A stretch of DNA of 64,000 nt from Candidatus Iainarchaeum sp. (GCA_002688035.1 NZBU01000012.1:18272-82271), one strand, 5' to 3'. Numbered from the stretch's first letter, positions 14,072 through 60,646 are shown. Notes: generated by a model from the letters alone, not told the origin. Numbers and translations: made by a program.

Positions 14072-14542
14072 TTATTCTGCCAAATCTCCAATATAAAGAG
14101 GTTCGCTTCTTGTTCTTGCTCCTGATGAATGTGGCGTCCCTGAACCCATCGGTCTTGTCTCAAACAAGGTTGTAGCATCTTTTCCACAACCTTCCAAGAT
14201 TGCTATTCCGCCAGGGTGTGATGAAATAAACTCTGTTACTGCATATACTTTACCGTCAAGTACCATCCAGCAATCAGTCTCAGTACTGTGTTCTGCTACT
14301 TCTTCCAAAGTGTATGTTGGCTGTAAATCTTCAGGAGGTATTGGTGGTGTGTTGTCATTGCTTGGGGGTGTAGGTGGTGTGTCGTCGTCAAGTGCAGGGG
14401 GTGGTGTTTGGCCATCAGTGTTTTCCGCATCTGTTTGAGTATCAGACTCGTCAACAGTATAGTCTGCTTCAGATTGAGTACAACCCGAAATAAGAAGCAA
14501 GACTACTAGCGCAACAATCAAAAAAACCCAATTTGTTTTCAT
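14072..14542 (-). CDS. Cytochrome b5-like heme-binding lipoprotein
   Basis: Lipobox ISGC, Pro/Asp linker, [28 protein letters not shown]. Confidence 0.9.
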
Positions 14543-14560
14543 CCAATCTCGCCTATTCTT

Positions 14561-15064
14561 TTACAGTAATCCTTCTTTTATTTCTTTAGTAAACATTACA
14601 ATATTTGTTTTCCCTAGCTTATCTGTTTCTATTACCCCGCGGTCAATAAGCCTTTGAACAATGCGATGCGATTTTACTTTACTCATTCCTGGGAGTCTTG
14701 TTAGCTCGGCCTGCAGTGCCTTTCCGTGATTCTCAATCAGCAGATTTACAAGTTTTTTCTCATCTAGATTGAGGAACTGTAAAAGCACCTCTGTATTGCT
14801 TTTCAGTGCTTCCTGTTTGATTTCGACTTTACCAGTCATCAAGTAGTATGTTCCTGCACCAGCAATAAGTGCAATGCTTGCAATTAAAGGTATTGCTGCT
14901 ATTAAAAAATCAAGTTGCTGTTTGTGTGGACAGGCACTTGTTCCTACTGCAGGACAAAAGTTTACATCACTCGTTTGTATAAGCAAAATGTTGACGCTGA
15001 ATACTGTGTAAAGAAAGGCAACCACTACAATAATGCCGATGATTAGTTTCTTGTTCTTGTCCAT
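14561..15064 (-). CDS. Membrane-anchored winged-HTH transcriptional regulator
   Basis: Two TMs flanking a C-x6-CPH loop; C-terminal QAEL..MSKVKSHRIV..L..RG HTH. Confidence 0.82.
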   Translation of the reverse strand: MDKNKKLIIGIIVVVAFLYTVFSVNILLIQTSDVNFCPAVGTSACPHKQQLDFLIAAIPLIASIALIAGAGTYYLMTGKVEIKQEALKSNTEVLLQFLNLDEKKLVNLLIENHGKALQAELTRLPGMSKVKSHRIVQRLIDRGVIETDKLGKTNIVMFTKEIKEGLL

Positions 15065-15104
15065 GGTTAAAAACAATCTTTGCTGCAAAACAATTTAAAT
15101 CTTT

Positions 15105-15932
15105 TTAATCGGTGATTTCTCCCCTTACTGAGATTATCTTTTGTTCAACAGGAATTTCTTTGCCTGAATCACCAAGTGCTTCTTCCACAATACTTTGTAA
15201 ACCAAAGCAGCATGGAACTTCCATGTGTGCGATCGTAATGCTCTTGATATTGTTATCTTTGAAAATAGCGGTTAGCTTTTCTTTGTAAAATTTTACATCA
15301 TCGAGCTTTGGGCAACCAATAACCAAAGATTTTCCTTCCAAGAATTCTGAATGAAAGTTCGCGTTTGCAAATGGAACACAGTCAGCTGCAATCAGCAAGT
15401 CAGCATCATTAAAGTATGAAGCATTGGGTGAGACCAGCATTAATTGCACTGGCCATTGCCCGAGTTCTGAGCGCTGTCTTGTCTGCTTTTCAGCCTCCTC
15501 GGCTTTCTCTTCCTTTCTAAAATCCTGCATTGCGCTTCCGGGGCAACTGTGTGGCAAAGGCGCTTTATCTTCTTTTTCAAGGGGATTATCAATCCCATTC
15601 TCTTCAAGGAATTCGGTGGCTTCTTTCAAATAACCTTCCTCGCCGTGCTCTTTCAAGTGCTCTAAATGTGCTTTGATCGTGTTTTCTCCCTTTTTTACAA
15701 TCTCTTCCATTACCTTCTTCTCATCATAGGGCTCTGCCTCTCTTTTAATAATGTGCATTGCTTCTTGCGGGCAGTGCCCAATGCACGCTCCTAATCCATC
15801 ACAATGCAAATCACTCACAAGCCTTGCTTTGTCATCAATGATTTGTAATGCTCCCTCGGGACAATTTGGAATGCATTCTCCGCAACCATTACACTTTTCT
15901 TCATCAATTTCAATAATCTCTCTTTCCACCAT
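15105..15932 (-). CDS. 4Fe-4S dicluster ferredoxin-domain protein
   Basis: CNGCGECIPNCP, CDGLGACIGHCP, CPGS, WPVQL, GCPKLD, MEVPCC. Confidence 0.92.
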   Translation of the reverse strand: MVEREIIEIDEEKCNGCGECIPNCPEGALQIIDDKARLVSDLHCDGLGACIGHCPQEAMHIIKREAEPYDEKKVMEEIVKKGENTIKAHLEHLKEHGEEGYLKEATEFLEENGIDNPLEKEDKAPLPHSCPGSAMQDFRKEEKAEEAEKQTRQRSELGQWPVQLMLVSPNASYFNDADLLIAADCVPFANANFHSEFLEGKSLVIGCPKLDDVKFYKEKLTAIFKDNNIKSITIAHMEVPCCFGLQSIVEEALGDSGKEIPVEQKIISVRGEITD

Positions 15933-15956
15933 TCTAAAATCCTCCTTGGTTTCAAA

Positions 15957-16009
15957 AGTATACTATGTAACGATTTATTTAAAACCGCGGAAGTTTCCAT
16001 ATGGAAACC
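15957..16009 (-). promoter_or_regulatory. Promoter with 16-bp palindrome GTTTCCATATGGAAAC upstream of the TATA box
   Basis: Perfect palindrome 15993-16008; same geometry as 31839-31890. Confidence 0.65.
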
Positions 16010-16022
16010 AGCTGCCTCTATT

Positions 16023-16772
16023 TTATTTCAGTTGTTGAGTGTGAATTCCGCATTCTCCTCCGCACTTGCTCGTATTTTGCCATCTTCCATCTCTTTCAAG
16101 TTGCGAGTCGAAAATTGGGTTGGTGCATGGTCCGCATCCTAGCGACCTATAACGTCTCCCATCTGGGAATTCTTTGGAATACCAGGGATGCAACTTAATA
16201 TTGTTGTCCTTAAGGTACTGCAGCACATCCTGCTCTGTAAATTCCAGAATCGGATTAACCTTTATCAGGCCACCTTTTTCCTCTATCTCCCTGTAATTCT
16301 TCCTTGTTCTCCCCTCTGTATTTCTAAGGCCGCAGATCCAGGCATCAAGGTCTTTTACAGCCGCTTTTGTTGGATCTACCTTAAGCAGCCTACAGCACTC
16401 ATCAGGACTTGCTTCATAAATCTCTTTACCTGTTCTCGCCTTTGATTCTGTCGAAACTCTGTTGAACTCTTCTGGTGGAAGAAGCTCCACATTCAAATCG
16501 TTTCCCTGCAGAACCTCTGGAATTGAATCAGCAACCAAATAAACTTTCAGGCCCAGATTCATTTCCCTGTTCATTTCCCTAAGATATTCAAATGTCTCAT
16601 TTGGCTTGTACCTAGTCATAATGGAGAAGATCTCGATACTGGGATCGACTTGCCGTGCAAGATGCACAACAACCATACTGTCCTTTCCAAAAGAACAGGC
16701 AACACCAATTCTCTTGTGTTCCTTTATTGCTTTTTCAACGATTTTTTTTGCGTGTTCGACTTTTTCATTCAT
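16023..16772 (-). CDS. cysH: APS/PAPS reductase (Fe-S type)
   Basis: SFGKDS, ECCRLLKV, GLR..EG..R, SLGCGPCT, GRW, ECGIH. Confidence 0.9.
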   Translation of the reverse strand: MNEKVEHAKKIVEKAIKEHKRIGVACSFGKDSMVVVHLARQVDPSIEIFSIMTRYKPNETFEYLREMNREMNLGLKVYLVADSIPEVLQGNDLNVELLPPEEFNRVSTESKARTGKEIYEASPDECCRLLKVDPTKAAVKDLDAWICGLRNTEGRTRKNYREIEEKGGLIKVNPILEFTEQDVLQYLKDNNIKLHPWYSKEFPDGRRYRSLGCGPCTNPIFDSQLERDGRWQNTSKCGGECGIHTQQLK

Positions 16773-16809
16773 TTTTATCTCCTCCAAAAAATTTCACAAA
16801 AAAATAATT

Positions 16810-17065: not shown

Positions 17066-17096
17066 ATGGTTTCATCAACCACTATATATGGTTTCA
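17066..17096 (+). promoter_or_regulatory. Copper-island promoter element (ATGGTTTCA direct repeats flanking TATA)
   Basis: 24/31 identity to 24308-24338 (minus strand); partial third copy at 18614-18644. Confidence 0.6.
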
Positions 17097-17119
17097 GCTC
17101 CAATGTTTGCGGTGATTTT

Positions 17120-18118
17120 GTGAAAAAAGAAGTTTCTTTGAAAATAAGTGGGATGCATTGCACCAGCTGCGAAAAGCTAATTCAAGACGGACTCTTGGAG
17201 CTCGAGGGTGTGGAAACTGTCCAAGTTAGTTTTGCAAATGAAAAAGCCAAAGTGGTTTTTGATGATAAAAAAGTCTCGCTTGACAAAATAGAGGGGGAAG
17301 TGCTGGAGCTTGGCTATGAAGTAAAAGGAAGCTCTGACAGCTCTACCAAAACAAAGAACACCACGGCCCAAAAGATGTCTATAAGGCAAGGTATTGTTTA
17401 TGGCCTGGTTCCGCACATTGGATGCATTGGTTTTATTGTGGCTTCAATTCTCGGAGCCACGATTGCGGTTGAATTCTTCAAGCCACTGCTCATGAATCCA
17501 TGGTTCTTTCACATTCTCATATTGATTTCAATCGGCTTTGCAACACTCTCCTCGGCATTCTATCTTAGAAAGCAAGGCATATTCTCAATGCAGGGCATTA
17601 AAAGAAAAAAGAAATATCTAGCCACAATGTATGGGAGTACAGTTGGAATAAACCTAATCCTGTTCCTAGTGATTTTCCCGATGCTTGCAAACCTTGACAC
17701 AGGATCTTTTGCCAATCCTACGGGTATGGTTACCTTAGCGGGAGCGCAAGGCAATTCAACTGCTTCAGATTCACTTCTGCGTTTACAATCAAACATTCCT
17801 TGCCCAGGGCACGCTCCTTTAATCTCTGGCGAACTCAAGAGCATTGAGGGGATAACAGGGGTAAAGTATGAGTTTCCGAATTATTTTGATGTTGCATTTG
17901 ACTCAAGCAAGACATCAAAGGATAAAATATTTGCTCTTGAGGTTTTTGAGATTTACACCGCAACACTAATAAGTGAGTCTCTTCCAGATCCAGAGGAGAA
18001 AGTTTCTTTCGCAGCAATACAAGAGGTTGAATCTCTTGGAACAGGAAACGTTCAGCCTTCAGGAACCTGTGGAGGGACTTGTGGCGGTGGCTGTGGTGGC
18101 TGCGGCTGTGGTGGATAA
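17120..18118 (+). CDS. HMA-domain membrane protein with second HMA-like domain and Cys/Gly tail
   Basis: GMHCTSC, about 3 TMs with PHIGC, IPCPGH, tail CGGTCGGGCGGCGCGG. GTG start after GGTGA RBS. Confidence 0.85.
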   Translation: MKKEVSLKISGMHCTSCEKLIQDGLLELEGVETVQVSFANEKAKVVFDDKKVSLDKIEGEVLELGYEVKGSSDSSTKTKNTTAQKMSIRQGIVYGLVPHIGCIGFIVASILGATIAVEFFKPLLMNPWFFHILILISIGFATLSSAFYLRKQGIFSMQGIKRKKKYLATMYGSTVGINLILFLVIFPMLANLDTGSFANPTGMVTLAGAQGNSTASDSLLRLQSNIPCPGHAPLISGELKSIEGITGVKYEFPNYFDVAFDSSKTSKDKIFALEVFEIYTATLISESLPDPEEKVSFAAIQEVESLGTGNVQPSGTCGGTCGGGCGGCGCGG

Positions 18119-18142: not shown

Positions 18143-18607
18143 ATGAAAATGGTGAATAAGGCAATATTTTTTACAGCGCTTCTGGCATTGCTGGTAGTTT
18201 CCGGATGTACATCGAACAATCCAAACAGTGCAACAGATGCTGCAGACAATTCTGAACAAGCAACTTTTTCAATTCCTGTTGCAAGTATTGGCCAAGAAGC
18301 CAAGTGGTATGAGTATGAGTCAAACGGCACTACGATAAGATTCTTTGCGGTAAAGGGTAGTGATGGTAGTGTGAAGACTGCGTTTGACGCTTGTGATGTT
18401 TGCAATTACTCTAAAAAAGGTTATTCGCAGCAAGGCAATTTTATGGTTTGCAATAATTGCGGGAACAAGTATCCAATTGATGGTCTTGGAACAGAGAACA
18501 AGAGACCTGGCGGATGCTGGCCAAGCTATTTGCCAAACGAAGTAGTTGGCGAAAATATTGTGATACAGAAAGCCAATCTCGAGAAAGGCAGTGCTTTCTT
18601 TGCTTAA
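18143..18607 (+). CDS. DUF2318-family (predicted Fe-S) lipoprotein
   Basis: Lipobox VSGC, TAFDACDVC, GY.Q.G..MVCNNCG, GGCWP. Confidence 0.88.
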   Translation: MKMVNKAIFFTALLALLVVSGCTSNNPNSATDAADNSEQATFSIPVASIGQEAKWYEYESNGTTIRFFAVKGSDGSVKTAFDACDVCNYSKKGYSQQGNFMVCNNCGNKYPIDGLGTENKRPGGCWPSYLPNEVVGENIVIQKANLEKGSAFFA

Positions 18608-18670: not shown

Positions 18671-20914
18671 GTGGGAAAGGAAAAAATCGAGACAGCAGGC
18701 ATTCCAATTCAGGGAATGCATTGCGCAGCCTGTGCCGTAAGAATAGAGAAGGCATTGCATAAATCACAGGGCGTTGTAAAGGCTAACGTGAATTTTGCCA
18801 ATGAAAAAGCCACCGTTGAATTTAACCCTGCTAACTCCAGTCTTGAAGAAATCTATAATATAATAAAGGATGAGGGCTACGGTATTGTGCAGGGTGGTAA
18901 GGATAGTGAGAAAGAAGCAAGGCAGAAAGAAGTAAGTGATTACAAGAGAAAAGTTATTCTGGCTTTCTTGTTGAGCAGTCCGTTAATGTATATTATGATG
19001 GCTTCAATGCTTGGCTGGCCAATACCGCAGATTATTATTGATAACAACGCGCTTGCACAATTCCTGCTCGCAACCCCTGTACTGATTGTCGGAAGACATT
19101 TCTTCATCCAGGGTTTCAAATCTCTGTTTAGACTAGTGCCTGACATGAACTCTCTTGTTGCAATAGGAGTAGGCTCTGCCTATACATACAGTTTTGTTGT
19201 AACAGTCTTCATATTATCAGGTTCAACGCTTTTCTCTGCAATGGACTTATACTATGAGGTTGCTGCTTTTCTGATAAGCTTCATTCTTTTGGGGCGCTAT
19301 TTTGAGGCAATTGCAAAGGGTAGGACTTCCGAGGCGATAAAGAAGCTTTTAGGGTTACAGGTAAAGACTGCTCTTGTTGAAAGAGAGGGCAGGGAGATGG
19401 AGGTTCCTATAGAGAACGTTAAGGTTGGTGACATAGTGATTGTAAAGCCTGGCCAAAAAATTCCTGTGGACGGGAAAATCGTGAGTGGGCACAGCAGTGT
19501 TGATGAGTCAATGATTACAGGGGAAAGCATTCCAGTGGAAAAGATTGTTGGTGACACAGTGATTGGTGCAACCCTCAACAAAACCGGGAGCTTCAAGTTC
19601 AAGGCTGAGAAAGTAGGTAAAGATACTGCTCTCTCTCAAATAATAAAGCTTGTGGAGGATGCCCAGGCAAGTAAGGCACCAATCCAGGATCTTGCTGACA
19701 AAATTTCAAATTACTTTGTGCCAACTGTAATGGGGATTGCCATAATCGCGGCCTTAGCCTGGTTTTTTGTCGGTCAAGGTTTTCTTTTCTCTCTTGCAAT
19801 TTTTATCACGGTTCTTATAATTGCTTGTCCCTGTGCAATGGGTCTTGCTACTCCAACCGCCGTAATGGTTGGAACAGGTAAAGGTGCGGAACAAGGAATA
19901 CTTATAAAAAGTGCTGCATCTCTCCAAAAAGCCCAGGAGATTAATACGGTTGTATTTGATAAAACAGGCACGCTCACAAAAGGGGAACCCGAAGTAACTG
20001 ACATATTTACTGAATCCTTGTCAAAGAAAGAAGTTTTGATGTATGCGGCTGTAGCAGAAAAGCGTTCAGAGCATCCTCTTGGAGAATCAATTGTGAACAA
20101 GGCAAAACAACAAAAGATTGTGCTAAAAGACCCAGCTAAATTTAATTCAATAACTGGCAAGGGTGTTGAAGCTAGTTTAGAAGGAAAAAATATTCTGCTT
20201 GGAAATCGCGCTTTAATGAAGGAACGTAACATTTCGGTGGAAAAGTTTGAACCTAAGCTTGCTGAGTTTGAGTCAGATGGGAAAACTGCAATGCTTGTTG
20301 CAGTTAACAAAACTGCTGTTGGAATAGTGGCGGTTGCAGATACTCTTAAAGAGTATTCAAAAGAAGCGGTTACAGCACTTCACCAAATGGGGAAACAGGT
20401 CGTGATGATTACCGGAGACAATAAGAGAACCGGTGAAGCAATAGCAAGACAGGTTGGAATCGATAAGGTTCTTGCAGAGGTGCTCCCCGAGGATAAAGCA
20501 AATGAGGTGAAGAAGCTTCAAAACACAGGAGCAAAAGTTGCAATGGTTGGAGACGGTATAAATGATGCTCCTGCCCTTGTGCAGGCTGATGTTGGAATAG
20601 CAATTGGTTCAGGAACGGACATTGCAATTGAATCAGGAGACATAGTTCTTGTAAAAGATGATCTAAGAGACGTTGTGGTTGCAATAGACTTGAGTAGGTA
20701 TGCAATGAACAAAATAAAGCAAAATTTCTTCTGGGCTTTTGTCTACAACGTTGTTGGCATTCCAGTTGCAGCAGGTCTACTATACCCTTTCACCGGTTTG
20801 CTTTTGAGTCCTGTTATTGCAGGAACCGCAATGGCTTTCAGTTCTGTAAGTGTGGTAAGCAATTCATTACTCATGAAACGCTATAAACCCAAAATAAAGA
20901 CTCGCGGAAATTAA
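18671..20914 (+). CDS. copA: Cu(I)-translocating P1B-type ATPase
   Basis: GMHCAAC, TGES, CPC, DKTGT, SEHP, GDGIND, YN and MAFSS. Confidence 0.97.
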
Positions 20915-21078: not shown

Positions 21079-21519
21079 CTATAGGTCTAGTTCATTAACC
21101 CACTCAGGAATCTTTTCGCCTTCAACCTTATCATAGACTGGCCAATAAGGTTTGATGTCTATTACCGGTGTGTTGTCCAAAACATCAAGGCCCTTCACTG
21201 TTATCTTGTTGCCTTCTCTTCCAAGAAGCTTTACGGTTGTAATTGCAATAGGGTTTGGTCTGGCAGGGCATCTACAAGAAAAGATTCCAACCACTGGGAC
21301 ATTAGGATTTCCCTGGGGTTTGTGAGTTATTACGTGCTTCTTAACCTTGTCCATCCAATAAACAATTATAACATGGGAATAATCATCTATTCCATTAAGT
21401 GCATCAGTGAATTCTTCGTTAAGTATTACTTCTGAAACTTCATTAGCAAAGCTTCCAAAGCGAGGTTCCTTAACATTACTTTTTACAAAACCAATTGGTT
21501 TCAAATTAATCTCGTTCAT
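21079..21519 (-). CDS. tsaA: TsaA/TrmO (YaeB/AF0241)-like SAM-binding methyltransferase
   Basis: LKPIG.V, GIFSCRCPARPNPI, GLDVLDNTPVIDIKPY. Confidence 0.9.
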   Translation of the reverse strand: MNEINLKPIGFVKSNVKEPRFGSFANEVSEVILNEEFTDALNGIDDYSHVIIVYWMDKVKKHVITHKPQGNPNVPVVGIFSCRCPARPNPIAITTVKLLGREGNKITVKGLDVLDNTPVIDIKPYWPVYDKVEGEKIPEWVNELDL

Positions 21520-21530
21520 AGTAACCTTGG

Positions 21531-22616
21531 TTATCCAAGTTCTTTAAACTCAATGCCTTTTCCAAGCGCAGCCATTTCTCTGAACACATAACTTCCGTCT
21601 TCTTCCCGTGTTCCAAGGCGCTGCATCCAAATGCTTTCAAATGAAGGGTATATTGAGAGTTCTCCCTTCAGCACGATGGCCGGAACTTTTCCAATATTAT
21701 AATCCTGAATTAAATCTGCCCCCTCGGTAGAACTAACATCAATTGTCTGCTCTTCTCCGATTGCGACAGCAAATCTTCCAAGAATGTTTTTGTGAACCAT
21801 TACATCGTAACAATTCTCACAACTTTCATCAGCAAGATAGATAATATCAATTAGTCCCTTGGTTTCCCCATTAGTAACATCGATGTAGGGTGGTGCGCTT
21901 TCAATTATATAGTAACCACTTTCTGCCTGCAGACCAGCACTTTTAAGGCTGTCTAGGATTAGTGGGTAAGCATCGATATCATCTGAGAGTAATAGTGCAG
22001 GGGCCTTTCCAATACTGTAAGTCGTGGTAAGCTCCTTTCCCTCATCTGTTGCATAACCAACTGCCTTTTCTTCACCAACAAACACGCCATTCTCTGTCAA
22101 CGAGTCAATAAAATAGCTTACATCTGCACAAACTTCACACTCATCAGCTTCAAGGATTATTGCCACGACTTTTCCAACAGTTTTGCCTGAACCAGTATCC
22201 TCGTAAGGGGCTGTTGGCTTGTCAAACACAAGTGTCTCTCCCCTCTCCTCAAAGCCGTTTGCATTTACCCTTTCAACTTCTCCTTTGAGCACAATTGCTG
22301 GTAAACGCTTTATTCCTAATTCAACTATAAGCTCTTTTGCTGCCGCAGAGTCTGCCTTTAGCCTTGTCTCACTTAGAATATTTAGGTCAGAGTTCTTGAG
22401 ATTTGCTTCTGTTCCAGAAGCAGTTACACATTCTTTACAGGAAGAGTCAATCAAAACAAGGTCTACTTTTGGAGAGGCTGACGCAAGCTTTACTTCCTCA
22501 AGCTTTGCTTTAAAGCTCTCTGAAACTTGTGGAACAGTAAACACATTGAACAATACTAGTGCGAGTAATATCCCCATTCCTGCGTATAGGATTGTTTCGA
22601 TTTCCTTATCCTTCAT
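21531..22616 (-). CDS. Membrane-anchored protein with three tandem CxxC thioredoxin-like modules
   Basis: TM, then CKEC, CEVC and CENC, each followed by an I.(R/K).PA cis-Pro loop. Confidence 0.8.
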   Translation of the reverse strand: MKDKEIETILYAGMGILLALVLFNVFTVPQVSESFKAKLEEVKLASASPKVDLVLIDSSCKECVTASGTEANLKNSDLNILSETRLKADSAAAKELIVELGIKRLPAIVLKGEVERVNANGFEERGETLVFDKPTAPYEDTGSGKTVGKVVAIILEADECEVCADVSYFIDSLTENGVFVGEEKAVGYATDEGKELTTTYSIGKAPALLLSDDIDAYPLILDSLKSAGLQAESGYYIIESAPPYIDVTNGETKGLIDIIYLADESCENCYDVMVHKNILGRFAVAIGEEQTIDVSSTEGADLIQDYNIGKVPAIVLKGELSIYPSFESIWMQRLGTREEDGSYVFREMAALGKGIEFKELG

Positions 22617-22628
22617 TTAAAAACACCA

Positions 22629-22877
22629 CTAGCATCCGCCAACCATATTTGGAAGACTTTGTAGGTTATTCTGCAAATTACTTGAAGACGAAACTTTGAC
22701 AGTGTCTTCTGACTGCAGGCTTAAACCATCAAATTCATTGTTTATTTGTTCTTTAAGGTCTGCCAACTCAATTGCTTGCACGCCTGAAAATATTATCAGC
22801 AAGCCAAGCACGGCCATTAATACAAGAACTTTTGTGTTAGCTCCGGCCTTTTCGCTTTTCTTTGTTTCTACAACCAT
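22629..22877 (-). CDS. Small single-TM protein ending in LPNMVGGC
   Basis: 82 aa, one TM, conserved tail. Confidence 0.85.
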   Translation of the reverse strand: MVVETKKSEKAGANTKVLVLMAVLGLLIIFSGVQAIELADLKEQINNEFDGLSLQSEDTVKVSSSSNLQNNLQSLPNMVGGC

Positions 22878-22878
22878 T

Positions 22879-24282
22879 TTAACAACCTCCTACCATTCCT
22901 GGTAAGTCTTTTAATTGTGAAGGGTCCTGCCCTGAAACCTGCACTCCCAAAGAAACCATATCTTGTGGGAACCACAATGTTTTCCAGCGCATAACCTCTC
23001 TCAAAACTTCTGCATCAGAGTACTCTGTGTCTCTCATTAAACCCAGTGTTATTGCTAACAGTGCTGGGTTGTGCTGACAACCACATTTTGATTTTCCAAC
23101 CTCATTAATTCCCTGCGGTCCTATCCCACAGCAGTACTCACAGCTTATTCCACGGGGGGCCGCAGCTAATTTTAAGTAGCGCTGCCATACTTCAGGACTA
23201 TTTTGCTCAACCTCGTCTGTAAATGAGTAATACCATTTAGCCAAGTAATTCAAACTGTTCACAGGATCGTCAAAAGTAATTCCCCCAAGTTCCTCACTAT
23301 AGGGTGGAGTGCCAGTAGGGTACATTGTTGCCATAACATCCTGGTCAGTTTTCGCACTCTTTAATTCCGGGAAAACTGTTGCAACTGCCATTGCTGTACT
23401 GTTTACTTCAAAAACATTTACTTTTGAAAGGTCTGCCCCGCCTACTCCATAGCCACCAGATGCCTTGGCCAGTGCCAAATCAAATGATTCTGAAATATCC
23501 CAAATTTGAACCTGGTTAAATAAAAGAATTGCAGTAACTACAAGCACACTGGCCATCAAAACATTATCCATACCCGGGCTTAGTATTGGTTTTGTTCCTG
23601 TTGTTGGGCAGGCAAGGCACTCTTTTGAATTAAGTTTGTATGATGCAAACACTAACAATGCAAGTGAAAGAACTTTTACTTCAAGTCCCTCTAACGGGAA
23701 TATGGTCAGTCCTGCACCCACTCCAACTAATGAAAGAACCAATGCGCCACAACTTGGGCAGCCCATTCCAACACCTGCAGCCACTATTCCCCCAAGGCCT
23801 GATGCACTTCCTTCTGGGTTGCGCATGATATTGTAAGCATTAACAATCAGTAAGCTGGATAATGGAATTATAATAGCCAGCGGCAAAAAATTAACAAACG
23901 TGTATTTGAACCCGCTCATCTCGGTATAGGAAAAGAGGCTGTATGAGGTGTTTGACAGCATCAGAATATAAGTGAGAATATATAGTGCGCCAGTCGTTCC
24001 AATGAATGCAAGCAGTCTTTTGTCAGTTGAAATAACGTGCTTGAATTTGTATGCGATAACTGTTGTTGCTAGCCCAAGTAAGAGTGAAACGCTTCCTGCA
24101 ACTAGAAGAGTAAGCAAAGCGTACCTGCGCGAATTCTCCATGAAATAATTAAAAAGCAAAAATTGGCTGAATGGAAATGCCATTGTTAATATGGCAAAAA
24201 GCAAAAACGATCCAATGGTTACCCCGGTAAATATTTTCGCGTATTTTTTGTCAGCTAATAACTTTTTGGCAATTGGCAACAT
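22879..24282 (-). CDS. Multi-TM Cys-motif protein ending in LPGMVGGC
   Basis: Several TMs, GCPSC, CLAC, SCEYCC, CGCQH, MVGGC tail. Confidence 0.85.
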   Translation of the reverse strand: MLPIAKKLLADKKYAKIFTGVTIGSFLLFAILTMAFPFSQFLLFNYFMENSRRYALLTLLVAGSVSLLLGLATTVIAYKFKHVISTDKRLLAFIGTTGALYILTYILMLSNTSYSLFSYTEMSGFKYTFVNFLPLAIIIPLSSLLIVNAYNIMRNPEGSASGLGGIVAAGVGMGCPSCGALVLSLVGVGAGLTIFPLEGLEVKVLSLALLVFASYKLNSKECLACPTTGTKPILSPGMDNVLMASVLVVTAILLFNQVQIWDISESFDLALAKASGGYGVGGADLSKVNVFEVNSTAMAVATVFPELKSAKTDQDVMATMYPTGTPPYSEELGGITFDDPVNSLNYLAKWYYSFTDEVEQNSPEVWQRYLKLAAAPRGISCEYCCGIGPQGINEVGKSKCGCQHNPALLAITLGLMRDTEYSDAEVLREVMRWKTLWFPQDMVSLGVQVSGQDPSQLKDLPGMVGGC

Positions 24283-60571: not shown

Positions 60572-60646
60572 TGGGTCTGGGAGGATTTGAACCCCCGACC
60601 TGCGGCGTATAAGACCGATGCTCTAGCCAGGCTGAGCTACAGACCC
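60572..60646 (-). tRNA. tRNA-Ile(TAT)
   Basis: GGGTCTG/CAGACCC-A; D arm GCTC/GAGC; TCGGT-CTTATAC-GCCGC; GGGGG-TTCAAAT-CCTCC. Confidence 0.9.

Follow-up and report, generated by a model that had tools for sequence, protein, structure and literature searches.

Two adjacent genes in a 64,000-nucleotide stretch of DNA from Candidatus Iainarchaeum sp. (GCA_002688035.1 NZBU01000012.1:18272-82271; hereafter the window) encode membrane proteins that share an eight-residue C-terminus, LPxMVGGC. We call the larger protein BIG and the smaller one SMALL. They belong to a four-gene operon that is conserved across DPANN archaea, in which the recurrent order, all on the same strand, is BIG, SMALL, TRX3 (a thioredoxin-like protein) and CcdA. 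We propose, at roughly even chances, that the operon specifies an extracytoplasmic cysteine relay that would bind Cu(I) and be kept reduced by CcdA and TRX3. Extracytoplasmic thiol and copper systems that draw on CcdA are known as a general kind. The new parts are an outer domain without a family or structural match, a CPxC membrane module without a name, the shared C-terminus itself and a tethered-cysteine protein.

A C-terminal tail shared by BIG and SMALL

With open reading frame (ORF) starts taken as the first ATG, the long form of BIG found in the window (22879..24282 (-), 467 aa) ends in ...LKDLPGMVGGC and SMALL (22629..22877 (-), 82 aa) ends in ...LQSLPNMVGGC. A single base separates the BIG stop from the SMALL ATG, and the next two genes are preceded by gaps of 12 and 11 bases. 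The tails, LPGMVGGC in BIG (residues 460-467, 22882..22905 (-)) and LPNMVGGC in SMALL (residues 75-82, 22632..22655 (-)), are encoded by different codons, as an earlier note on this DNA had stated; the respective sequences are CCA GGA ATG GTA GGA GGT TGT TAA and CCA AAT ATG GTT GGC GGA TGC TAG. Among the 2574 M-start ORFs of at least 40 aa in the whole assembly (745 kb, 61% complete), only these two end in GGC or contain MVGGC anywhere. The shared tail is far beyond chance.

The 467-aa BIG matched 152 sequences, most of them 256-300 aa long and covering its last ~230 residues at ~45-65% identity. Among the matches listed, 116 of 119 BIG homologues carry MVGGC at the C-terminus; the other three comprise one ending in MVGEC, one ending in MVGVC and one incomplete sequence. 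A scan with one genome per species returned 185 BIG relatives, and the best 80 of these 185 constitute the 80 loci referred to below; the loci are related to each other, so counts over them are not independent. Their labels are of DPANN type (Woese-, Aenigm-, Micr-, Alti- and Iainarchaeota, Nanoanaerosalina), and some carry the depositor's label 'Methanosarcinales', unchecked. BIG ends in MVGGC at all 80 loci, and at 75 of them it is adjoined, nearly always directly downstream, by a 55-134-aa ORF ending in LPxMVGGC; three of the five loci without such an ORF have a contig end cutting the site. Conservation of the tail, on which the earlier note had staked its proposal, is thus seen both among the listed homologues and at the loci. 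When 215 genomes of the window's phylum were scanned with a DNA pattern for the tail, 22 contained it, usually as two matches 250-300 bases apart, and none contained the reversed control pattern. A word search with the 82-aa SMALL returned only SMALL itself, and in an alignment of 71 sequences residues L75, M78, V79, G80, G81 and C82 of its tail were invariant.

In the otherwise confident AlphaFold2 model of BIG, the predicted local distance difference test score (pLDDT) over the last ~15 residues falls to 66-77 and then below 50, the last three residues all lying below 50. This low score suggests that the tail is a flexible arm.

An outer domain of unrecognised fold and a tethered cysteine

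A hydropathy scan of the 467-aa BIG gave ~7 hydrophobic segments, with K/R-rich loops at residues 1-13, 79-89 and 214-235. Residues 236-467 (22882..23577 (-)) comprise a membrane anchor, which is the seventh helix and ends in FNQxQI, and a globular outer domain. Applying the positive-inside rule to the K/R-rich N-termini and loops, we would place this domain and both tails outside the cytoplasm. The outer domain carries a Cys/His cluster, C381-E-Y-C384-C385-G ... C400-G-C402-Q-H404 (23071..23142 (-)), whose C, E, CC, G, CGC and H do not vary across an alignment of 60 sequences. The invariant residues of this C-terminal part of BIG are S-C-E-x-C-C-G, C-G-C-x-H-N-P-A, W-K, F-P-x-x-M and the tail. 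The cluster motif (SCEYCC...CGCQH, residues 380-404) had been described as intramembrane, as had GCPSC and CLAC. That description holds for GCPSCG, which lies inside a membrane helix of the N-terminal module treated below; CLAC is instead placed in a cytoplasmic loop, and the cluster is not intramembrane but in the globular C-terminal domain, which is placed outside the cell.

AlphaFold2 modelled the anchor plus outer domain with a pLDDT of 88.9 and residues 283-467 alone with a pLDDT of 92.7 and a predicted template modelling score (pTM) of 0.90; the latter model is all-helical, with no strands of three or more residues. Because a first VIA-align run was dominated by the long anchor helix, the globular part had been refolded alone in this way, and its best row was then CcmH (2hl7_A; Z 4.4, root-mean-square deviation 3.5, 75/82 residues), a level rated weak. 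Foldseek searches of the Protein Data Bank (PDB) with both BIG models found nothing at E<=0.001, a PDB sequence search with the BIG profile gave no matches at E<=10, and an ESM Atlas search returned unnamed archaeal clusters only. BIG has no Pfam or NCBIfam family, with 59 of 60 aligned members lacking any match and one having a chance-level match. The outer domain is thus predicted to be helical and of unrecognised fold. A function already assigned to the family would have undone the earlier proposal; Pfam, NCBIfam and PDB sequences gave none, and literature searches (supplements aside) turned up no description of BIG, SMALL, the tail or the CPxC module.

SMALL has a short, often His-rich N-terminus, one helix ending in VQAxQLxxLK (VQAxEL in the window's protein), a linker whose length stays within the narrow range of 30-46 residues (median 39) and of which 23% is Ser, and the ending NLPxMVGGC. 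Apart from their tails the two proteins had been called dissimilar. At the level of BLASTP this stands, as only the last 14 residues (E 8e-4) and a weak membrane-helix match align; at the level of profiles it does not, because the SMALL anchor matches the BIG anchor (hhalign 96%, E 4.3e-9, 34 columns). SMALL thus resembles a BIG that has lost its globular domain and kept an anchor, a Ser/Gly leash and the tail, and in effect it would be one tethered cysteine. Complex predictions with BIG and SMALL profiles gave scores of 0.30 and 0.26, where the mark is 0.32, and count neither way.

The cytoplasmic N-termini of both proteins are rich in His, which makes up 11.6% of residues in BIG (53 of 91 sequences have at least four) and 18% in SMALL, compared with a background of 1.8%. 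Two BIG-like proteins, P0175 and P0179, combine the CPxC module and a C.YCCG...CGC.HA core with a His-rich tail, H..HGGAG.DG.HGL, that has no Cys.

TRX3 and CcdA are the constant partners

We clustered the ORFs within 6 kb of BIG across the 80 loci. TRX3, typically ~375 aa with three conserved CxxC motifs each followed by a downstream Pro, was present at 62 loci, and CcdA (PF02683, with SPC and C.GP motifs) at 52. In the window, TRX3 (21531..22616 (-), 361 aa) has an N-terminal membrane helix and three thioredoxin-like modules (CKEC, CEVC and CENC). It has weak Pfam and NCBIfam thioredoxin matches and scored just under the cut-off for PF13192 (23.6 vs 24.8), its homologue at locus L043 exceeded that for PF00085 (28.7 bits vs 23.5), and 50 TRX3 sequences conserve the three CxxC motifs together with a (K/V)(L/x)P motif downstream of each, which argues from sequence for a thioredoxin-fold protein. 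The fourth gene of the operon elsewhere is CcdA: its representative at L078 scored 61.3 bits against the PF02683 cut-off of 27.1, and the consensus of the CcdA neighbours contains lSPC and GWtaC.GPiL. In the window, the last gene of the array encodes the tRNA methyltransferase TrmO/TsaA (21079..21519 (-); PF01980, E 7.9e-31; TIGR00104). The two tailed genes are thus followed, as the earlier note had it, by a triple-CxxC thioredoxin protein and TsaA. Because none of the 80 loci has a clustered TsaA counterpart, this gene is probably incidental to the operon.

The other recurrent neighbours were a monothiol thioredoxin-like protein with the motif WCxYT (family f142, 28 loci), DUF7343/MarR membrane regulators (19), DUF411 proteins (CopG-like, with CGCC and Met-rich; 18), DUF835-HTH proteins (17), a BlaI-like repressor (13), an M48 protease paired with that repressor (12), copper ATPase/HMA proteins (12), Lgt (7) and MerT-HMA (6). 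Four more recurrent neighbour families, without names, are Cys- or His-rich. We considered the BlaI/CopY-family repressor as a copper-sensing CopY and rejected this, since 13 of 13 sequences lack the Cys motif; it is paired with the M48 protease in the manner of BlaI/BlaR. A cytoplasmic-looking family, f161 (L009, L014, L015, L033, L038, L054), also recurs beside BIG, and g170 (L114, L142, L152, L155), found beside the sister family BIG2 described below, appears by conserved motifs to be the same family (DLSxxEDLSxAxMNLxSLEEHFxF...WCISKHLL...DCCKE); it has no Pfam or NCBIfam name.

The Lgt genes beside the operon (L002:4644-5414, L003, L005, L007, L050, L052 and L080) are of bacterial type (PF01790, E 1.2e-78), and neighbours in these loci carry lipobox-like signals. 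Their presence bears on the reading of the tail as a tag recognised by a processing, sorting or lipid-attaching enzyme, a form of which (a modification tag) the earlier note had raised. VGGC is lipobox-like, M-V-G-G-C fits the lipobox residue pattern, and two unrelated-looking proteins share the ending. However, the motif stands at the extreme C-terminus after a polar segment rather than at a signal-peptide end, and Lgt is absent from 73 of the 80 loci and from the window's genome. Where Lgt does occur, N-terminal lipobox-like signals in neighbours (f157, f162, DUF411, FtrD-like) explain it, and the only recurrent peptidase- or sortase-like family is the M48 protease paired with the BlaI-like repressor. 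We found no support for a tag and regard it as very improbable. A bacterial lipoprotein, as substrate of Lgt, was rejected for BIG and SMALL on the position of the Cys, which is the last residue after a polar segment and not at the end of an N-terminal signal peptide. A double-glycine leader cleaved after GG was also dropped, as such a cut would free a single residue and the recurrent neighbour families named at BIG loci include no C39-type peptidase.

A CPxC membrane module as a probable stand-in for CcdA

The window's BIG is one of eight long forms (452-473 aa) that begin with a module of ~6 helices (residues 1-235, 23578..24282 (-) in the window), in which GCPxCG is invariant (8/8). The window's version, GCPSCG (residues 174-179, 23746..23763 (-)), lies in the middle of the fifth hydrophobic segment of the hydropathy scan, and CLAC (residues 222-225) follows in the next loop, which is K/R-rich and placed in the cytoplasm. 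At the long-BIG loci other than the window, CcdA is nearby in one of seven, vs 51 of the 73 short-BIG loci (Fisher p 0.0065, overstated as the loci are related). There is no CcdA in the window and no PF02683 match in its own genome (61% complete).

The module is not itself a divergent CcdA. It scored 8.6% in hhalign against the 46 CcdA neighbours, seven N-terminal domains had no Pfam hit at E<=10, CcdA/DsbD_TM (PF02683) included, and both of its Cys lie together in one helix, as GCPxCG, not as one PC-type motif in each of two helices. A word search for stand-alone versions gave only two weak matches, and it was a profile search that revealed the family, with at least 811 representatives at E<=1e-3, 98 of them at E<=1e-10. 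These are mostly membrane proteins of 150-225 aa that share the CPxC (e.g. P0132-P0269). Beyond the CPxC, many of the 146 representatives listed carry another Cys or CxxC, ~50 residues on and ahead of a basic C-terminus, the position occupied by CLAC in the window. In a sample of 30 relatives, 29 had no Pfam family and one had a fused cytochrome c domain. The CPxC module defines a large family without a name. It appears to be a stand-in for CcdA that would relay either electrons or a thiophilic metal across the membrane.

Copper genes beside BIG

In the window the operon converges on copA (18671..20914 (+)), an arrangement recognised in the earlier note. A P1B-1 pump is recognised by an N-terminal HMA CxxC, by CPC within a membrane helix and by the motifs YN....P and M..SS.....N/S. 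The product of this copA has E1-E2 ATPase, Hydrolase and HMA domains and shows all of these motifs, the last as M..SS.....N, which identifies it as a predicted P1B-1 Cu(I) ATPase. It is preceded by an FtrD-like protein (18143..18607 (+); PF10080, called DUF2318 earlier) with a lipobox-like signal, LLVVSGC, and, at the head of the cop operon, by an HMA membrane protein of 350 aa (17066..18118 (+)). The latter has a weak tblastn likeness to the MerT-HMA neighbours found elsewhere (E 4e-5). Its C-terminal domain is extracellular by hydropathy and ends in a Gly/Cys tail, ...GTCGGTCGGGCGGCGCGG, another Cys-bearing flexible C-terminus in a copper neighbourhood.

Of the 80 loci, 12 have a P-type ATPase/HMA gene no more than 6 kb from BIG, where ~1% would be expected for a single-copy gene; the enrichment of the tail family beside metal ATPases, a second point on which the earlier proposal could have failed, is thus present. 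The CPC, YN....P and M..SS signature was found in 8 of the 12 long ATPases beside BIG. Any one of CopA, DUF411 and MerT-HMA is present within 6 kb at 30 loci, and DUF411 is found between BIG and SMALL in L008, L010, L015, L040 and L077 and right after BIG in L009 and L014.

BIG2, a sister family in bacteria

The profile search with the N-terminal module also yielded a family of ~500-aa proteins, BIG2, in which the CPxC module is fused to another outer domain (YRPCC[NG]N...DCNHG...FWFP, ending ...GGxGCGV). The core of this domain matched the CC...C.H...FFP core of BIG (hhalign 89%, E 2.3e-6, 59 columns). At least 576 BIG2 relatives were found in a metagenome scan; we kept 80 loci (L081-L160) and counted neighbours over 72 of them. 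The flanking genes are bacterial in kind (peptidoglycan-binding, LysM, FtsW/RodA, OmpR-type regulators). A Cys is among the last three residues in 76 of 76 complete BIG2 ORFs, 68 of which end in C-[GSAN]-[VAITQ], and a small partner sharing the BIG2 tail occurs only at L127.

Copper and redox genes recur here as well: a copper ATPase at 28 of the 72 loci, DUF1573 at 23, a CsoR-family repressor at 17, three clusters of DsbD-like membrane proteins (at 18, 15 and 10 loci), a TlpA-like thioredoxin at 12, and DUF411 and DsbA-like proteins at 7 each. One member of the 18-locus DsbD-like cluster passes PF02683, and the 10-locus cluster has a fused HMA (DsbD_2-HMA). The full Cu(I) signature is present in 17 of 24 ATPases beside BIG2, and most of the others have CPH. 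One form of the operon runs CsoR-CopA-DUF1573-DsbD-like-BIG2-DsbD_2/HMA (e.g. L142:5851-6756, L150:5980-6891). Cys-rich small proteins without names (g136, g145 and g146) accompany BIG2. Both families thus recur with a membrane Cys-pair module, with or without a thioredoxin, and with copper efflux genes.

These neighbours bear on two further explanations. In a Mer-like uptake relay, Cu(I) or Hg(II) would move from the arm and cluster to the mid-membrane GCPxCG and on to the cytoplasmic CxxC or His-rich tail. Such a route would use the membrane CxxC together with the second Cys or CxxC ~50 residues on, seen in many of the 146 listed module representatives; the MerT-HMA genes (6 of 80 BIG loci), the DsbD_2-HMA fusions (10 BIG2 loci) and the cytoplasmic position of the His-rich tails fit it too. 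Short BIG forms, however, have a single helix and pair with canonical CcdA, a known electron carrier, and the operons adjoin efflux pumps and repressors of efflux genes, which import would oppose. We consider uptake unlikely.

The other is a sulfur carrier. A Gly-flanked Cys at the C-terminus, with a thioredoxin and a CcdA homologue encoded nearby, is reminiscent of SoxY and its companions SoxV/SoxW, and the CsoR family includes persulfide sensors. Sox intermediates are described as bound to a cysteine of the carrier SoxYZ (PMC5336275). A carrier like SoxY/DsrC would here hold persulfide or sulfane sulfur on the terminal Cys, with BIG loading and unloading it and Trx/CcdA rescuing dead-end adducts, and the window does contain a PAPS-reductase-like gene (16023-16787 (-)). 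We nevertheless judge this improbable, given that no Sox, Dsr, rhodanese or TusA proteins are among the recurrent neighbours, that copper ATPases bearing the Cu(I) signature are the neighbours instead, that BIG is predicted to be all-helical, and that His-tail variants exist.

Cu(I) relay or thiol-disulfide relay

In the Cu(I) relay that we propose, the terminal thiols of the arms, with the adjacent Met, would take up Cu(I) on the outer side of the membrane, for example as it is expelled by the facing CopA, and pass it to the BIG Cys/His cluster, which would hold it or hand it onward. CcdA or the CPxC module, followed by TRX3, would carry reducing power from the cytoplasm to these thiols, which would stay reduced or be re-reduced after copper-catalysed oxidation. 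The direction of copper transfer given here is the one we infer.

The same genes could instead form a pure thiol-disulfide relay, in which CcdA or the CPxC module and TRX3 feed BIG as a new helical oxidoreductase and copper is never bound; the terminal Cys would be shuttle thiols that reduce or isomerise misoxidised surface proteins, for example after copper or oxidant stress. The constancy of TRX3 and CcdA fits this alternative, as do the monothiol thioredoxin-like protein at 28 loci and the best structural match, weak as it is, to the thiol oxidoreductase CcmH. Thioredoxin reductase, Erv2 and MerA offer precedents for a flexible redox arm at the C-terminus. On the other side, a CcmH Z of 4.4 is below the level that the tool calls meaningful, and the His-tailed P0175 and P0179 would be incapable of disulfide exchange. 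His can stand in for Cys as a metal ligand but not in that chemistry. We favour a metal role over disulfide chemistry because the cytoplasmic tails are His-rich, because P0175 and P0179 replace the Cys tail with a His tail, because DUF411 is inserted between BIG and SMALL and because BIG2 sits inside CsoR-CopA operons. On this balance the pure thiol-disulfide relay is a real but minor contender.

Several observations weigh against the Cu(I) relay. The constant partners of BIG (62 and 52 of 80 loci) are the thioredoxin/CcdA reducing branch and not copA, and 50 of the 80 loci have no CopA, DUF411 or MerT-HMA within 6 kb, a count that a thiol-disulfide relay would accommodate. The His-rich N-termini are cytoplasmic and have no role in the mechanism as proposed. 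BIG2 tails lack the Met of MVGGC. The C-H-C pattern is the Cu(I) type in the CsoR family, and of the CsoR-family neighbours of BIG2 only 6 of 17 have it, the other 11 being C-H-H. Finally, the window's family includes 22 other genomes, and the tail pattern is absent from all of them; with 22 of 215 genomes positive in the phylum, the module is accessory and patchy. The Cu(I)/thiol carrier system of the earlier note thus survives in part: the conservation and the enrichment for copper genes uphold it, the constant partners are redox proteins, and copper binding and arm movement are proposed.

A wider version of the Cu(I) relay, which we hold more tentatively and at somewhat under even chances, is that DPANN archaea and small-genome bacteria share a superfamily of extracytoplasmic copper handlers made of a new-fold helical Cys/His domain, a CPxC relay and a 'fishing-line' Cys. 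The sole task of SMALL would then be to hold out one Cys from the cell surface on a ~40-residue leash, carrying Cu(I) or reducing equivalents among the CopA exit, BIG and the thioredoxin branch.

Relation to known systems

TlpA is paired with the copper chaperone ScoI. ScsB is described as a DsbD-class electron transporter (PMC3322552). As in these thioredoxin pathways fed by CcdA or DsbD (ScsB/ScsC, TlpA/ScoI), a membrane Cys pair and an anchored thioredoxin-fold protein would here serve extracytoplasmic Cys targets, with a genetic link to copper genes. Unlike in Scs and TlpA, the target is a helical domain without a known family that bears a C-terminal Cys arm, with a free-standing tethered arm beside it; TRX3 has three modules, and the window has a different, fused module where CcdA would be.

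CopG is described as binding a Cu4 cluster through CxCC and Met and as acting in anaerobic copper resistance (PMC7558416). BIG resembles it in having a Cys-cluster motif (CxxCC and CGC in BIG, CxCC in CopG) with Met nearby, and DUF411 genes lie inside some BIG operons. BIG differs in being membrane-anchored, with a terminal arm, and in its predicted all-helical rather than thioredoxin-like fold. We rejected BIG as a CopG/DUF411 protein (PF04214), as neither BIG nor 60 aligned members matched the profile and the model is all-helical.

SoxYZ has a reactive Cys on a Gly-rich mobile C-terminal peptide, with companion genes of CcdA type (SoxV) and thioredoxin type (SoxW/SoxS); a SoxY-type carrier is defined as a beta-sandwich protein that pairs with SoxZ and bears a GGCGG peptide at its C-terminus. 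BIG and SMALL differ from SoxYZ in fold, in having copper genes and no Sox enzymes nearby, and in that the Cys is the last residue. A SoxY-type assignment was rejected, the tail being similar in kind only, the model having no strands of three or more residues and Sox neighbours being absent.

MerT/MerP also place Cys pairs outside, in the membrane and at its cytoplasmic face, and MerT-HMA genes are found at 6 of 80 loci; BIG nevertheless has no sequence relation to MerT or HMA, and most BIG forms rely on CcdA. CcmH, the top structural row, is likewise a small helical periplasmic redox-Cys domain fed by DsbD/CcdA through a thioredoxin-like protein. Its family is recognised by a three-helix bundle with an LRCxxC loop; in BIG the Cys pattern differs, there is no Pfam CcmH match, and no cytochrome c machinery is among the neighbours. 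We also rejected an HdrB/DsrK-type CCG domain (PF02754), to which there was no Pfam match and whose spacing does not agree: BIG has C-x2-CC-G-x13-C-x-C, and the CCG motif is given as CXnCCGXmCXXC with n about 31-39 (PMC2754724).

This work defines a conserved four-gene module, a minimal tethered-cysteine protein and two families without names, BIG/BIG2 and the CPxC membrane module. Few envelope functions are annotated in DPANN archaea and in bacteria with similarly small genomes, and little has been described of how they cope with copper, which is most toxic as Cu(I) in the anoxic waters that they inhabit. Arms that carry copper would represent a new design for handing on metal outside the cytoplasm; arms that carry electrons would add a new branch to the DsbD/CcdA network. 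With either outcome, several hundred 'hypothetical proteins' would gain a name.

Other features of the window and its genome

Upstream of the cop operon, positions 14072-16787 (-) hold the PAPS-reductase-like gene already mentioned, a 4Fe-4S ferredoxin-domain gene, a DUF7343 regulator gene and a cytochrome b5-like gene. The regulator (14561..15088 (-); PF24034, E 1.1e-9) is a membrane-anchored winged-helix protein, and by tblastn it matches the MarR/DUF7343 cluster that adjoins BIG operons elsewhere (19 loci).

The assembly gave two full-length archaeal small-subunit rRNA matches on different contigs (C7:14518-15997, 1397 bits; C10:14653-16136, 1410 bits), the second of which marks the genome as archaeal. 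In an assembly of this size and completeness, they could reflect two operons or a mixed bin. ARAGORN placed a tRNA-Ile with the anticodon TAT at 60572-60646 (-) of the window, an uncommon route for reading AUA.

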